A stretch of DNA of 64,000 bases from a virus. The notes beneath the pieces were generated by a model that was not told where the DNA came from, did not search any database, and saw only the letters and a list, made by a program, of their open reading frames with translations. Location of the stretch: positions 1 to 64,000 of IMG/VR virus record IMGVR_UViG_3300046002_007411; one strand, written 5' to 3'. Below are positions 3,590 through 32,747 of the stretch, piece after piece; the first letter of the stretch is position 1, and every line of letters starts with the position of its first letter. A program made the translations under genes and the position numbers.

Positions 3590-4051
3590 ATGAAATTTAT
3601 TGCACATCGGGGGCTGATTAATGGGCCAAATACTTGCTTGGAAAATACTCCAGAGCAAATTTATTTTGCACTTTCTCAAGGATATAATTGTGAAATAGAT
3701 GTTTGGTTTATAGATGGCCATTGGTGGCTAGGACACGACAAGCCACAGTATTCTATTGAACTTGATTTTTTAAACGATAATAGATTTTGGATACACTGTA
3801 AAAATCATTTGGCACTAAATCAACTACACGCTGCAGGCAATCATAACTATTTTTGGCACCAAAATGATGATATAGTCTTAACAAGCAAAAATTTTTTTTG
3901 GACATATCCTGGGAAACCTCTTTTTTCTAACAGTATATGTGTAATGCCTGAATGGGTGATGCCTATGGAAGAAATCAAAACCTTAAACTGTTATGGAGTT
4001 TGTAGTGATTATATTTTAGACATTCAAAAAGGAATTTCGAATGAAGTGTAG
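3590..4051 (+). CDS. glycerophosphodiester phosphodiesterase-like (PLC-like) protein
   Basis: IAHRG, ENT, EIDVW, LGHD, WIHCKN, CSDY motifs. Confidence 0.8.
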   Translation: MKFIAHRGLINGPNTCLENTPEQIYFALSQGYNCEIDVWFIDGHWWLGHDKPQYSIELDFLNDNRFWIHCKNHLALNQLHAAGNHNYFWHQNDDIVLTSKNFFWTYPGKPLFSNSICVMPEWVMPMEEIKTLNCYGVCSDYILDIQKGISNEV

Positions 4052-27471: not shown

Positions 27472-28146
27472 TTAACTCCAAAGCAAATTCATTTTGCCCT
27501 GCATGAACTCTCGAGCTGTTAGGGATTTTCCTGTGCGATGATCTTGTACAGCATCATCTTGAAATCGGATAGTGCGGATTTTATCTCCACGCTGTCCACT
27601 GCCAATCTGTATTTTGCGCTTGTGATTGTGTTTGTTGTTTTGGGACTCTGCGTGTTGATTTTCTATCAACACTTGCAGTGCCAGCAGCGCATTGCTGTAG
27701 CTATTTACCCGACTACGAGTTTGACTTGTGGTTGTAAAACCCGTGGGTATATGACGTAAACGGCAACTGTTGGCGTGTTTGTTTCTATGTTGGCCGCCAC
27801 AGCCTGTGCCGCTAAACCATGAGATTTCTATATCCTGGGGATTTATGATGTTTTTTTGATTATCGTGGTAATCAATAACAGCTACAGTCACGGTACTAGT
27901 ATGAACTCTACCGCGTCTTTCAGTGGGAGGAACACGTTGCATACGCAACCCCCCAGCTTCTTGATCTAGTTGTGAGAGATCTTGACCTTGAACAACAAAG
28001 CTATAGAACCCCGGTGCTTGCTGCTCGTGACTAACCAGTCAACCCAGGGCCAAGGCCAGCCGGCGATAAGCGCGGGCTAGGTCTTGAACAAATAACTTGC
28101 TATCTTCGCCGCCTTCAGCAGCACGTATCTCAATTATTTTTTTCAT
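27472..28146 (-). CDS. class I peptide release factor (RF1-type, lacking domain 1) with in-frame UGA at codon 36
   Basis: MKKIIEIRAAEGGEDSKLFVQDLARAYRRLALALG*LVSHEQ...EAGGLRMQRVPPTERRGRVHTS...GGQHRNK...KIRTI; single frame 28146-27472, TGA at 28039-28041. Confidence 0.85.
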
Positions 28147-28191: not shown

Positions 28192-29613
28192 TCAGGCTTG
28201 AATAACCTGATAGCGATCACTTTTAATGGTTTGCTTCATTATGGCTTGGGGTGTGAAAGTTTCAGCAGCCAAAATGCTGGTCATAATGCTGGGACTAAAT
28301 CCGCTTACCAGGGCAGAACCTTGCTGGTCAAATCTCACCGGACTGTTTCCAGTGGCATTGGGCCGAGCATTCAAGTTCCACCAAACAAGACGTGGTAGCT
28401 CATATCCTGCCTGCTTGAACATGCTGCGAGCTAGATCCCATGCACTGACACTTACGCCGTGAGCTAAGCCGGAGTCAAACTCCATGTCACTTAGCACCAA
28501 CAGATATCGGGGCATTTGGTCAGCAGCTAGTTGGTTTACTATAGCCACTTGCAGAATGCTGCGAAATGCGCTTTCCAAGTTGGTATTATACCCCATGTTG
28601 TCGCGCATTTGCTGTAGCTTTGCCAAGAGATCACCTTTGAGAATGTCAATGTGACTGTCGCGTGTGAAGGTCAGCCACATGTCCCGGAAGGCGCCTTGTT
28701 GCTTGTCGGCAATATAGAGACCTAGGCTGATAGCCACCTGCATGCAAGTGAGCCCGGTACCTTGTTGGCCGCCCACAGGGGCACTCATGCTGCCGCTGAC
28801 ATCCACCATGGGCAAAATGCTGTTATCGCCGAGATAGTTGGGCAAAGCCTGCCACTGAGCTAGAGCCACTTGTGGATCGCCGCGAGTCACACTGCGGATG
28901 ACATCATAGGGATAAACAGCCTGAGCGTTTACATGCCCTTGTCCAGTTTGCAGACTTTGCTTCCACTCAGCATAACGTAGGGGATCTTGGCGATTAAAAG
29001 CCTTTTGATATCTAGCCGCAGCAACACTGGGAACATGATTATAGTTGATTTCCTGCCACTGCCGGGCACACATGGGAGTTTCCACAACAGTTGTCAACTC
29101 CACAAGCATTTTACGCCAGGCTTTTGGTGAGTAGTTGATATACCCACGCAGACGATTGGCAATAGCACCCTGACGAGGCATCCATTTTGCAGCCAAAGCG
29201 TTACCTTGCTTGAGTGCGCGGATAATCATGTCGGCAGCCAATAGCTGCATGCGAGCTGTAGAGAAAATCAAAAGATCGTCCCACCGTCCGTATTCGGGAA
29301 TACAAGCTAGATTGGCTTCCACACTGGCTGGATGATTTTTTTCCAGCCAGCGTAGAACTTGTCGGAAAATTTCCCGTTCACCAGCCCCTTGACGAATATC
29401 ACGTGCCCAAAACAAAACTTGCATGGCACTTAGGGCGTCGTGCTGATAAGCTCGTTCAAATGCGGTAGTGATATCTTTGCCACGGCTTGCGCCAATGGCA
29501 AAGAAAAGATCCACAACTGGATCGGCACTGGTGTCATATGTGACCATGCCATTTGCTGTTGTTGCTACAACAGCAGAATTTTCCACGGCCTGGGCAAAAG
29601 TGATTGTAGTCAT
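28192..29613 (-). CDS. DUF2828 TROVE/Ro60-like protein with C-terminal VWA domain
   Basis: T.NG, DLFF, RDIR.G.GER, YGRWDDL, AAKW.PR, VPS.A, MIDAS DVSGSM, SDMEFD, WWNL, VSGFS. Confidence 0.85.
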   Translation of the reverse strand: MTTITFAQAVENSAVVATTANGMVTYDTSADPVVDLFFAIGASRGKDITTAFERAYQHDALSAMQVLFWARDIRQGAGEREIFRQVLRWLEKNHPASVEANLACIPEYGRWDDLLIFSTARMQLLAADMIIRALKQGNALAAKWMPRQGAIANRLRGYINYSPKAWRKMLVELTTVVETPMCARQWQEINYNHVPSVAAARYQKAFNRQDPLRYAEWKQSLQTGQGHVNAQAVYPYDVIRSVTRGDPQVALAQWQALPNYLGDNSILPMVDVSGSMSAPVGGQQGTGLTCMQVAISLGLYIADKQQGAFRDMWLTFTRDSHIDILKGDLLAKLQQMRDNMGYNTNLESAFRSILQVAIVNQLAADQMPRYLLVLSDMEFDSGLAHGVSVSAWDLARSMFKQAGYELPRLVWWNLNARPNATGNSPVRFDQQGSALVSGFSPSIMTSILAAETFTPQAIMKQTIKSDRYQVIQA

Positions 29614-29625
29614 AAAATCTCCTAA

Positions 29626-29683
29626 CAGGTTGGCGTTTTGTGCTACAAGAGCTTGCTATTAAAGGTTTTGCTGCAACCAACCT
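29626..29683 (-). ncRNA. CAGCAA stem-RNA unit D (abuts the SD of the DUF2828 gene)
   Basis: AGGTTGG-TTG-CAGCAA...CCAACCT-G. Confidence 0.7.
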
Positions 29684-29707
29684 TGAATTAATTCAAGTTT
29701 AGATAAA

Positions 29708-29752
29708 CAGGCTGGGGTTCTTTTTTCCAAAAAATATTGCTGTACCCAACCT
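29708..29752 (-). ncRNA. CAGCAA stem-RNA unit C
   Basis: AGGTTGG-GTA-CAGCAA...CCAGCCT-G. Confidence 0.7.
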
Positions 29753-29804
29753 TGATGTTTCCCAGCCTGCTAACGCAGGATGTTCCACATTTAGCTTTTA
29801 TAGT

Positions 29805-29861
29805 CAGATTCGACTATGGAATTGAACCATTTTCATATCCTTGTTTTGCTGAAACGAATCT
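29805..29861 (-). ncRNA. CAGCAA stem-RNA unit B with T-arm-like hairpin
   Basis: AGATTCG-TTT-CAGCAA...ATGG-TTCAATT-CCAT...CGAATCT-G. Confidence 0.7.
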
Positions 29862-29880
29862 CGATAGTTACCAGGAAACA

Positions 29881-29997
29881 CAAGATCAACTTTTTGCCTC
29901 TTGCTCTACCCTTGAGCTACCGCCCCATTTATGGGGGAGCGGATTGGATTCGAACCAATAACACCTAGGTTGATTTTTGATTTGCTGTAATGATCCT
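29881..29997 (-). ncRNA. CAGCAA stem-RNA unit A with circularly permuted tRNA-like module (YrlA/Y-RNA-like)
   Basis: AGGATCA-TTA-CAGCAA...T arm ATTGG-TTCGAAT-CCAAT, CCGCTCC-C-CCA, TAAAT, GGGGCGG, D arm TA-GCTC-AAGGGTA-GAGC...TGATCTT-G. Confidence 0.8.
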
Positions 29998-30022
29998 TTA
30001 GCCTCTTGGTAAGCTATTTCTA

Positions 30023-30250
30023 CTAGCTATTGTGTGCTTTGTCAAGCAGTTTTTGTTTAAAAACCACTGCGCACTGGGCATCACATAGGTTTACCTGATG
30101 CTCACGATTGTGATATAACCCGGCATTGTATTCATGCACTGTGTTGGGCTGTGCAGGGTTACCCAGACTGAAACACTGGATAACAGCATCCACTGGCTTG
30201 CCACATGCACCACAAGCTGTCCAAATGTCTTTTTGATCACGAATTTTCAT
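30023..30250 (-). CDS. small putative Zn-binding protein
   Basis: CGACG...C...C; start at 30250 overlaps the upstream gene end. Confidence 0.5.
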   Translation of the reverse strand: MKIRDQKDIWTACGACGKPVDAVIQCFSLGNPAQPNTVHEYNAGLYHNREHQVNLCDAQCAVVFKQKLLDKAHNS

Positions 30251-30692
30251 GCTGCCAAACTTCAACTTCCAGTGGATTATTGGTGCTGTTGACCACACGA
30301 CGAATTCCAAAAGCTGCAATCGCTCGTGTGCATCCTTCACAAGGATGAGCCGTGCCGCTGCACCAATGCGCTCGAGGACCTGCTCCGCTGCGCTTGACTC
30401 GGAACACAAACAAAGTGCATCGCGTGAGCAAATCTGCCGTGGTATGATTCAGGGCATTGCGGATGGCATCAATCTCGCTGTGCAGAAAAATAGCTTCGCT
30501 GTTCTTGCCAAAACGAGCTTGCAGCGGGTGCGTGCGAAACTGATTGATGCCAAAACTCACAATGTCATTTCGATGAACCAAGGCACTGGCAATTTTTGCT
30601 CCGCGAACCGGAGCAACATCTTGTGCCATGATCCTAAGCGTGTTGAGCACACGCTGATCACGTCGGCGGAGGTCGTGGACTTGCTTTATCAT
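30237..30692 (-). CDS. zinc-dependent nucleotide/nucleic-acid deaminase
   Basis: HSEIDA and PCEGC deaminase motifs. Confidence 0.85.
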   Translation of the reverse strand: MIKQVHDLRRRDQRVLNTLRIMAQDVAPVRGAKIASALVHRNDIVSFGINQFRTHPLQARFGKNSEAIFLHSEIDAIRNALNHTTADLLTRCTLFVFRVKRSGAGPRAHWCSGTAHPCEGCTRAIAAFGIRRVVNSTNNPLEVEVWQHENS

Positions 30693-30726
30693 GTCCTGAT
30701 AATAGCATGATTCCACCACATGTCAA

Positions 30727-31718: not shown

Positions 31719-32708
31719 TTATGTTTTTGGCACCAAGGTGTCTAATTTTCCACCTAGCAAATGGATCTTGTGTCCATGTTTTTGAATAGTCAAGGTTTTC
31801 AAACTCAACTCTGTGCGGCTGTCGCTTGTTGCTGCCAGCAACCCGCGTGCAAAGTTTTCAATATGACCCACACTGTAACCATATTGATTGGTTTGATCCA
31901 ACACACGCAAGAGTAGATTCTTAATCCTCAAATAGCCCAAATCACGCAGTTTTGGCCAACTCCAAGTCACAGCGTCAATAGTCACAGTTTGTAGATCTTG
32001 ATCAGCTAGGCAGTTTACCAGATCCCAAGCTTCACCAAGATGGTGAATACTGCGCAGGGCATTGACATCAGCAATGTCAAATCTTTGCAACACAGTGGGC
32101 CAGATAACTCCGCGAATGTAGTTGCGATCATAAGTTGTATCTTGGTTGCTGGGATCGTGACACCAAGAAATATCATGATGTCGATTATAGTCCATGATTT
32201 GCTCGCGTGTGACATTTAGCAGCGGGCGCACTACCTGCTTGTGAGGATCAAACCAACAGCTGGCTTGCGCCGTCATGGCTTTCAATCCCTTGATGCCACT
32301 GCCGCGAAAAATCCTCAGCAGAAAGTTTTCAATTTGATCGTTGGCATGATGTGCTGTGATAATGCAATCGATATCTTGCTGACAAAATGCTTGATATCTA
32401 GCACGGCGGGCTGCATGCTCAAGATTGCCTTGCAGTTGGTTTTTCTCAAGGGCAACCACTACATGTTCAAATCCCCAAGCTTGTGATGCCTGTTGCACTT
32501 GCTGTGCCCATTGTGCGCTGGCACCCATGATGTTGTGATTGACATGCACAACCAAAAACTCAGTTGTAAACTTGTCGCGATGTTGCGCAAACCAATGCAG
32601 CAGCATCATGCTGTCTGCTCCCCCACTTACTGCTATGACAGCTCGCTGGCTGTGTTGGAGAAGTTCTTGCACATCAGAGATTTTCACAAGCTGTGGCATG
32701 TATGTCAT
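31719..32708 (-). CDS. tilS: tRNA(Ile)-lysidine synthetase
   Basis: AVSGGADS, HVNH, EHAARRARY, TAHHANDQ.E, RPLL, DPSN...YDRNYIR. Confidence 0.95.
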   Translation of the reverse strand: MTYMPQLVKISDVQELLQHSQRAVIAVSGGADSMMLLHWFAQHRDKFTTEFLVVHVNHNIMGASAQWAQQVQQASQAWGFEHVVVALEKNQLQGNLEHAARRARYQAFCQQDIDCIITAHHANDQIENFLLRIFRGSGIKGLKAMTAQASCWFDPHKQVVRPLLNVTREQIMDYNRHHDISWCHDPSNQDTTYDRNYIRGVIWPTVLQRFDIADVNALRSIHHLGEAWDLVNCLADQDLQTVTIDAVTWSWPKLRDLGYLRIKNLLLRVLDQTNQYGYSVGHIENFARGLLAATSDSRTELSLKTLTIQKHGHKIHLLGGKLDTLVPKT

Positions 32709-32747
32709 ACCCTGAACATACATGCACCTAGCTCAGTTGTCAATGTG

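Follow-up and report, generated by a model that had tools for sequence, protein, structure and literature searches.

A circularly permuted tRNA-like element in a viral genome: likely cargo of a Y-RNA-like small RNA encoded upstream of a DUF2828 protein with a predicted Ro60 fold

Among described RNAs, the bacterial Y RNAs of the YrlA type, which partner a Ro60 orthologue, come closest to the element examined here. In Mycobacterium smegmatis, whose YrlA has a 7-base-pair (bp) acceptor, RNase P cleaves the RNA in vivo as well as in vitro and the upstream piece carries a terminal CCA (PMC4201824; 10.1101/312249), the CA of which is added after cutting (PMC4201824); the YrlA RNAs of Salmonella and Deinococcus have shorter acceptor stems and are uncut (PMC4201824; 10.1101/312249). 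On the phage side, the Ro60-like protein gp130 of Bas63 (Felixounavirus), encoded just upstream of transfer RNA (tRNA) genes, has been reported to act against the Ppl defence (PhageMaP preprint, PMC11482910); the preprint ventures the guess that Y RNAs may be among the adjacent "tRNA genes", and it names no partner RNA (PMC11482910). The subject of this work is a circularly permuted tRNA-like element in a 64,000-nucleotide (nt) stretch of viral DNA (positions 1 to 64,000 of the IMG/VR record IMGVR_UViG_3300046002_007411, which is 111.7 kilobases (kb) long; hereafter "the window"), situated on the minus strand in the intergenic region between the stop of an upstream open reading frame (ORF) at 30023 and the start of a DUF2828 gene at 29613. 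We consider it likely that this element forms the tRNA-like cargo domain in a Y-RNA-like small RNA, which comes first in a tandem row of four "handle" RNAs encoded just upstream of the same-strand DUF2828 gene, whose protein has a predicted Ro60 fold. On this reading we class it with the YrlA-like Y RNAs, in a branch that we met neither in Rfam nor in the literature searched. A sequence-only reading of the window had understated what is now the best-supported role, i.e., that of a cargo domain of a Y-like RNA partnering the neighbouring Ro60-fold DUF2828 protein. What the analysis demonstrates is the anatomy, conservation, covariation, gene linkage, predicted Ro60 fold and presence in RNA libraries.

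Read on the minus strand from 29959 to 29903, the element passes through a T arm, an acceptor hairpin, U8-A9 and a D arm, with no anticodon arm. All seven acceptor pairs are formed, the third being G3-U70, and the set of tRNA elbow bases is complete (U8, A14, G18, G19, A21, G53, U54, U55, C56, A58 and C61). The flanks 5' of the T arm and 3' of the D arm both lead to one closing stem (29997-29991 / 29888-29882). The sequence-only reading had given the order T arm, acceptor 3' strand plus C-CCA, linker, acceptor 5' strand and D arm, which we recover base for base; the G3-U70 pair, C73 and intact CCA that it named are all present on the minus strand, and the missing anticodon arm, replaced by a link to the CAGCAA stem in a circular permutation of the YrlA type, is likewise seen in the sequence. 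What resembles an anticodon stem (29969-29965 / 29901-29897) amounts to only three pairs in the window and is not common to relatives, many of which have a separate hairpin at that place, and this stem was left out of the covariance model described below. The fold proposed here is 3.4 kcal/mol above the minimum free energy. Two of the five spacer bases are changed in a 97% relative (locus L001) and in RNA run X17, and the CCA is unchanged in both.

As for the YrlA likeness put forward in that reading, the topology stands; the Rfam YrlA model (RF02553) aligns with the module end to end at 31.7 bits (E 8.5e-5 in a 900-nt search), under its cut-off. The two RNAs share a circularly permuted tRNA body whose "anticodon" side enters the stem made by the RNA's two ends; both lie next to a same-strand gene whose protein has a Ro60 fold (a predicted one in the present case), as tandem Y-like RNAs of which one has only a T arm, like YrlB, and the 7-bp acceptor is common to this element and M. 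smegmatis YrlA. Apart from the score, they differ as follows: YrlA has GNCGAA(N)G near its 5' end (the proposed Ro60 contact), whereas the handle here has CAGCAA and a (C)UGU tail; the YrlA partner is a Ro60 orthologue, whereas here it would be a DUF2828/DUF7788 protein, Ro60-like by model and without a Pfam TROVE match; and the CCA is wholly encoded here, whereas M. smegmatis YrlA gets its CA after the cut. A phage counterpart is known from Thermus phage phiLo, in which, as here, the gene of a Ro60-type protein has at least two Y-like RNAs directly upstream (PMC12135203; PDB 9KOP, 9L5Y). The phiLo Ro60 is also the best structural match of our DUF2828 model, at a protein sequence identity of ca. 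15%; the phiLo RNAs Yrl1 and Yrl2 use a CGAA motif, and the text of PMC12135203, as searched, describes no tRNA-like domain in them.

The evidence that the element belongs to a conserved family comes from 97 loci around DUF2828 homologues (27-100% protein identity) in cultured phages and IMG/VR contigs, numbered L001 to L097 here. A strict pattern, which demands a perfect 5-bp T stem with a TTCRA loop, all seven acceptor pairs closed by a loop of at most 12 nt, and a D arm, matches these loci 20 times on the gene strand and never on the opposite strand, with 0.05 matches expected from shuffles, and the loci so detected include those of a Bas63-like E. coli phage, Bacillus phage PJN02, Mycobacterium phage Lewan and an Enterococcus phage. 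The modules of the last three lie at 606-735 of L012 (PJN02), 3025-3155 of L014 (Lewan) and 938-1251 of L017 (Enterococcus phage). Nearly all matches are flanked by CAGCAA upstream and enclosed by a stem of phage-specific sequence. In an alignment of 18 such modules, double-sided changes are seen in 20 of the 23 pairs that make up closing stem, T arm, acceptor and D arm; the covariation score reaches 0.92 (0.22 for shuffles and 0.10-0.17 with slid partners), and the invariant columns are CAGC and the bases of the tRNA elbow. A covariance model, R1, built from these 18 seed modules (the window's own among them) and applied at E<=0.01, finds 93 matches, none of them on the strand opposite to the gene. 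Of these, 15 fall on junctions between genuine tandem tRNA genes, and 75, spread over 49 loci, carry a handle with CAGCAA. Twenty-six handle modules end no more than 100 nt from the gene start, in 25 loci other than the window's. The first module of the window scores 102.8 bits (E 2.4e-19), partly by construction, since it is one of the seeds. Over the whole 111.7-kb record R1 points to four places only, all in one intergenic region, modules 2-4 being recovered independently at 20.9-25.7 bits; the element is thus carried by the first in a tandem series of four handle RNAs (Table 1). We found this RNA family described neither in Rfam nor in the literature that we searched on DUF2828, Ro-like proteins, and YrlA together with phage.

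The proposed partner is recognizable by its predicted fold. An AlphaFold model of the DUF2828 protein, made from an alignment of 26 relatives, has a predicted local distance difference test (pLDDT) value of 81.7, and its top 12 fold matches in the PDB are all Ro60/TROVE structures aligned over their full length (best E 1.7e-7; template modelling score up to 0.59), with phiLo Ro60 first and Xenopus and human Ro60 and Deinococcus Rsr among them. By sequence the protein has no Pfam TROVE match, and a profile search of the PDB reaches only E 0.12. Of 50,697 phage records, 710 contain DUF2828 homologues, and in 52 of the 97 loci tRNA gene arrays lie on the same strand beside or around the DUF2828 gene.

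Table 1. Features of the handle RNA array and of the DUF2828 gene in the window (all on the minus strand)
Feature	Positions	Strand	Basis
Module 1 ("unit A" of the sequence-only reading): handle with permuted tRNA-like cargo, ~125 nt	29875..29999	-	Covariance model R1
Closing (basal) stem, 5' strand AGGAUCA	29991..29997	-	Pairs with 29888-29882; 7/7 pairs show double-sided changes across 18 modules from different phages
CAGCAA handle motif, unpaired, directly inside closing stem	29982..29987	-	CAGC invariant in 18-module alignment
T arm, 5-bp stem and UUCGAAU loop (ATTGG / TTCGAAT / CCAAT)	29943..29959	-	G53, U54, U55, C56, A58 and C61 invariant in family
Acceptor 3' strand CCGCUCC (tRNA positions 66-72)	29936..29942	-	7/7 pairs with 29926-29920; all 7 covary in family
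Discriminator C73 (29935) and encoded CCA (29934-29932)	29932..29935	-	Sequence reading; NCCA enriched in long family loops
5-nt spacer UAAAU, would-be 3' trailer and RNase P leader	29927..29931	-	Sequence reading
Acceptor 5' strand GGGGCGG, G3 facing U70	29920..29926	-	Positions 1-5 and 68-72 as in E. coli tRNA-Ala alaX
U8-A9 (29919-29918) and D arm GCUC / AAGGGUA / GAGC (29917-29903)	29903..29919	-	U8, A14, G18 and A21 invariant, G19 nearly so
Return strand: A26; AGG pairing CCU 29969-29967; A-rich internal loop; UGAUCUU (29888-29882)	29882..29902	-	A-run 5' of 3' stem conserved
GUGU tail at the (C)UGU position of the family	29878..29881	-	G at 29881 invariant in alignment
Module 2: handle with lone T-arm-like hairpin (29829-29817)	29799..29863	-	R1 20.9 bits, E 0.067 in 111.7-kb record, weak alone
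Module 3: minimal handle RNA	29702..29754	-	R1 25.7 bits, E 0.006
Module 4: minimal handle RNA, ending just 5' of the DUF2828 ribosome-binding site	29620..29685	-	R1 25.7 bits
DUF2828/DUF7788 protein, 473 aa (amino acids), Ro60-like fold, presumed partner	28192..29613	-	Pfam; PHROG phrog_850 "RNA-binding protein"; AlphaFold model

The handle, always encoded on the strand of the DUF2828 gene, follows one plan (a closing stem, CAGCAA, an A-rich 3' side and the tail (C)UGU), and its interior is variable: it may hold a tRNA body, either permuted or in the normal order, a T arm by itself, a different conserved hairpin or a short hairpin rich in A and U. Bodies in normal order, with D, anticodon-like and T arms and the handle in place of the acceptor stem, are seen at L075:4057-4161 and L060:868-975, so that the handle takes both permuted and unpermuted tRNA cargo. 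The hairpin of module 2 (AUGG / UUCAAUU / CCAU, 29817-29829, minus strand) is a repeat of family D6 and is reminiscent of the M. smegmatis YrlB T arm; in RNA run X16 a variant changes its loop to UUCAAAU. The other recurring cargo hairpin, GUGAGUUUCGAUUUCUCAC followed by ..AAUCAAAAAGUAGAAAAC, was met at L038:1200-1302, L020:1318-1426, L054:1245-1350, L029:864-973, L082:1295-1420 and other places. Between modules 2 and 3, CAGGCUGGG (29761-29769, minus strand) perfectly complements the 3' strand of the module 3 closing stem (29708-29716, minus strand), and two mutually exclusive pairings are therefore possible. In Xanthomonas phage XbC2 (OP292654.1), a jumbo phage in culture, six R1 matches, of which the four inspected carry the handle, are clustered at 306291-309759 (one module at 309636-309759), ca. 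200 kb from the DUF2828 gene, which indicates that handle RNAs need not adjoin it.

The Class I RNA of Dictyostelium (RF01414; PMC7919456) likewise has a short end-joining stem, a variable interior and a conserved CUGU 3' end, and its 11-nt unpaired motif beside the 5' strand, with T, C, C, A and A fixed at positions 3, 6, 9, 10 and 11 (PMC7919456), is compatible with ..UUACAGCAA. A search of the four modules (29600-30000, E<=10) with RF01414 gave no match, and the best scores of that model in the record lie elsewhere, at 9-12 bits. Class I RNAs are reported only in social amoebae, where Rnp1A is a direct binder (PMC7919456), and no tRNA-like cargo is described for them (PMC7919456), unlike module 1. 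Bas63 gp130, for its part, looks by its description and gene placement (as at locus L011) like a member of the DUF2828 family; at L011, the locus of a Bas63-like E. coli phage, a handle with a permuted-tRNA module stands at 3771-3904, between tRNA genes.

Parts of the window are also found in RNA libraries, in six metatranscriptome runs from five studies; these data are assembled Logan contigs, which carry no information on RNA ends, strand or cuts. Contigs from four freshwater metatranscriptome studies span the array and continue into the first 90-330 nt of the DUF2828 gene. Their upper limits (29986, 29992, 29992 and 29964) fall near the first handle, with the 150 nt above uncovered, a weak hint that an RNA 5' end lies there. 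In run X15, the depth is 48 on the array contig and 3.5-4.6 on the upstream gene, a per-contig depth that cannot rank genes.

Several observations weigh against reading the element as the cargo of a Y-like RNA. Its score falls below the YrlA cut-off (31.7 vs 69 bits) and the GNCGAA motif is absent; thermodynamic folding does not go beyond that of shuffles (z = -0.62 for module 1 and -1.56 for the whole array), although such z-scores are uninformative, as is usual for tRNA-like RNAs; a figure of 98% paired is partly by construction, because the seeds were picked for their ability to pair, and independent support comes from enrichment, strand bias and a concordant alignment made from sequence only; and binding of the DUF2828 protein to the handle RNA is something that we infer by analogy. 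The element could also be a match by chance, a tRNA pseudogene in decay or two tRNA halves fused during assembly, and a remnant is conceivable in a 111.7-kb record where no canonical tRNA gene (RF00005) was found. This explanation we regard as refuted: the strict pattern occurs at one site in the window (both strands) and at one site across 200 dinucleotide shuffles, and covariation and strand-specific linkage to the gene recur in distant phages. All sampled words of the stretch were found in DNA runs from 11 lake or freshwater studies (one of them possibly the source), and the same arrangement is present on two separate IMG/VR contigs (100% and 97% identity), which excludes the assembly join that the sequence-only reading had listed as a possible artefact. 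ARAGORN found no gene at the element and Rfam at gathering thresholds had no match in the whole window, so that standard annotation overlooks it, and blastn of the 409-nt intergenic region against the 50,697 phage records returned no match.

That the element might instead be a working permuted tRNA gene or a two-piece (permuted) transfer-messenger RNA (tmRNA) is suggested by the order of its halves, which is the same as in such genes, and by the G3-U70 pair and CCA; two-piece tmRNA has the same CCA-bearing acceptor 3' strand upstream, followed by a removable spacer, and the same G3-U70, and Rfam tmRNA_permuted (RF04321) aligns with the acceptor region only (19.8 bits, E 0.089). That score is far under the cut-off of 47 bits, there is no anticodon stem-loop, and ARAGORN, which is able to find permuted tmRNA, stays blank; once the halves are re-joined, it calls a tRNA only when its threshold is lowered to 90%, and then with a 38-nt "intron". 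tmRNA is not known to have a D stem, whereas the element has a full D arm, and no tag reading frame, pseudoknots or sign of SmpB-dependent design was found, all of which makes this origin of the signal hardly credible. More attention is due to the idea that the four modules form a cis-acting leader of the DUF2828 messenger RNA (e.g., for autoregulation) and are not free small RNAs, as RNA contigs pass from the array into the gene, module 4 abuts the ribosome-binding site, and a minimal module occurs no farther than 100 nt from the start codon in 25 other loci. Yet in Felixounavirus, Mycobacterium phage Lewan, XbC2 and others the modules lie downstream of the gene or 200 kb off, among tRNA genes; a leader has no need for a complete tRNA elbow; and the M. 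smegmatis Y RNAs likewise come from one precursor upstream of rsr and are then released (PMC4201824). We thus hold a leader to be quite improbable.

Taking module 1 as the tRNA-like cargo of a Y-like RNA, the handle would, by analogy with Ro60 and Y RNAs, be the docking site for the DUF2828 protein, and the variable interior would be the working part of each handle RNA; protein binding, cleavage, charging and biological role are steps that we infer. Without an anticodon arm, the module 1 body could not decode but could present a tRNA elbow and an acceptor end to tRNA-binding factors. RNase P would cut before G1 (29926) and 3' trimming would halt at the CCA (29932), giving a two-piece RNA joined by the acceptor and closing stems, like M. 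smegmatis YrlA. Module 1 has a 7-bp acceptor, a discriminator, a CCA and a 5-nt leader, and the chances that it is cut and trimmed in such a manner seem about even.

The alternative, possible though short of an even chance, keeps the same family and the same protein partner and has the acceptor hairpin remain closed, as in Salmonella YrlA, with the CCA as a leftover of its origin: the junction of tandem tRNA copies reads T arm, acceptor 3' strand, NCCA, spacer, 5' strand and D arm. It accords with the majority of the family, in which the acceptor is closed by loops of 3-6 nt without a CCA (this holds for every module with 7/7 acceptor pairs and such a loop), with the RNA contigs, which in four of four runs pass uncut through the acceptor loop (some of these libraries possibly with DNA carry-over), and with the view that YrlA RNAs mostly stay closed (10.1101/312249). 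The closest orthologous module (L018:95-226, 68% protein identity) has G3-U70 and no CCA, and a relative of L054 and L064 (L077:1253) has a plain tetraloop where they have ACCA and a spacer. Loops of at least 7 nt tell a different story: in 8 of about 12 lineages they start with NCCA (1/64 expected per loop), and long loops have either NCCA or no trace of it, with no half-decayed CCA seen. In the orthologous modules L054:1129 and L064:1243 the ACCA is kept while stem and spacer diverge, the latter in both length and sequence, just as the window's CCA is retained relative to L001 despite the two spacer changes. This pattern suggests two stable loop states, sealed or with CCA and spacer. In addition, a full 7-bp acceptor with discriminator and leader is what RNase P requires, and the M. 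smegmatis YrlA is cut.

The alanine character of the acceptor is real in sequence terms but lineage-specific. Its positions 1-5 and 68-72 are identical to those of E. coli tRNA-Ala alaX, and it is probably descended from a tRNA-Ala. The discriminator, though, is C73 and not the A73 of tRNA-Ala, and within the DUF2828 set (ca. 25 lineages, wobble pairs being common) G3-U70 is restricted to the window's lineage and its L018 orthologue. In the viral collection the G3-U70 pattern has 12 matches, six of them tandem tRNA junctions or coding sequence and six of them permuted modules in five lineages; two of the loci involved (L111 and L116) are relatives of the window, and L113, L114, L118 and L119 are independent and combine G3-U70 with A73, CCA and a 4-6-nt spacer. 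A G3-C70 control pattern also finds six permuted CCA-bearing modules, and there is hence no clear excess of G3-U70. One of the independent cases, L113:956-1068 (minus strand; G3-U70, A73 and CCA), has an anticodon-like hairpin and is called tRNA-Thr by ARAGORN, and neither a DUF2828 gene nor a CAGCAA handle lies within the flanking DNA examined. Charging of the element by alanyl-tRNA synthetase (AlaRS) is conceivable on sequence grounds and is the least supported step; the full succession of RNase P opening, trimming to CCA and charging by the host AlaRS, which would equip a Ro60-like phage particle with an aminoacylated tRNA body that lacks an anticodon, we consider unlikely. The proposals in the sequence-only reading that the product acts as a decoy for AlaRS, EF-Tu or toxins, or enters the ribosome, are speculation.

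The genes around the window's locus are translation- and tRNA-related. All on the minus strand, they include a gene with an RF-1 (GGQ) domain (27472-27948), one with a cytidine/deoxycytidylate deaminase fold (30237-30719) and a PP-loop, TilS-like gene (31719-32723). A 76-codon ORF with many cysteine pairs of the CxxC type (30023-30252, minus strand) ends 25 nt 5' of module 1; it was searched within a longer listed ORF, with no Pfam or PHROG match. A promoter for the array is unconfirmed, as the TTGACA (30045-30040) / TAGAAA (30022-17) pair that we read by eye is absent from the output of a sigma-70 scan. Elsewhere, in XbC2 (L008) and Listeria phage LMSP-25 (L015), the distance from the DUF2828 gene to genes for an RNA ligase (RtcB-type "tRNA-splicing ligase") is no more than 1.3 kb, and XbC2 has a gene for a CCA-adding enzyme ca. 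4 kb downstream of its DUF2828 gene.

The element, encoded by a freshwater phage, is a real, conserved RNA of the Ro60/Y-RNA kind, and a CCA-ended and perhaps alanine-accepting two-piece form of it is a possibility. DUF2828 is a very large family of unknown function, the papers that our literature search found under that name being concerned with plant and animal genomes, and a conserved RNA partner on the Ro60/Y-RNA plan would give it a testable function, with a tie to the report of a Bas63 Ro60-like protein that counters a bacterial defence (PMC11482910). If the handle truly follows the Class I plan, this would further suggest a protein partner for a class of amoebal RNAs whose role is unexplained. 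The CCA-bearing, alanine-type acceptor makes testable a question raised in 2014, i.e., whether Y RNAs are processed and aminoacylated like tRNA. Were charging to take place, the charged particle could bind EF-Tu or the ribosome, or absorb host defence enzymes that attack tRNA acceptor ends; such a device, serving the phage in counter-defence or in taking over translation, would be without a described parallel.

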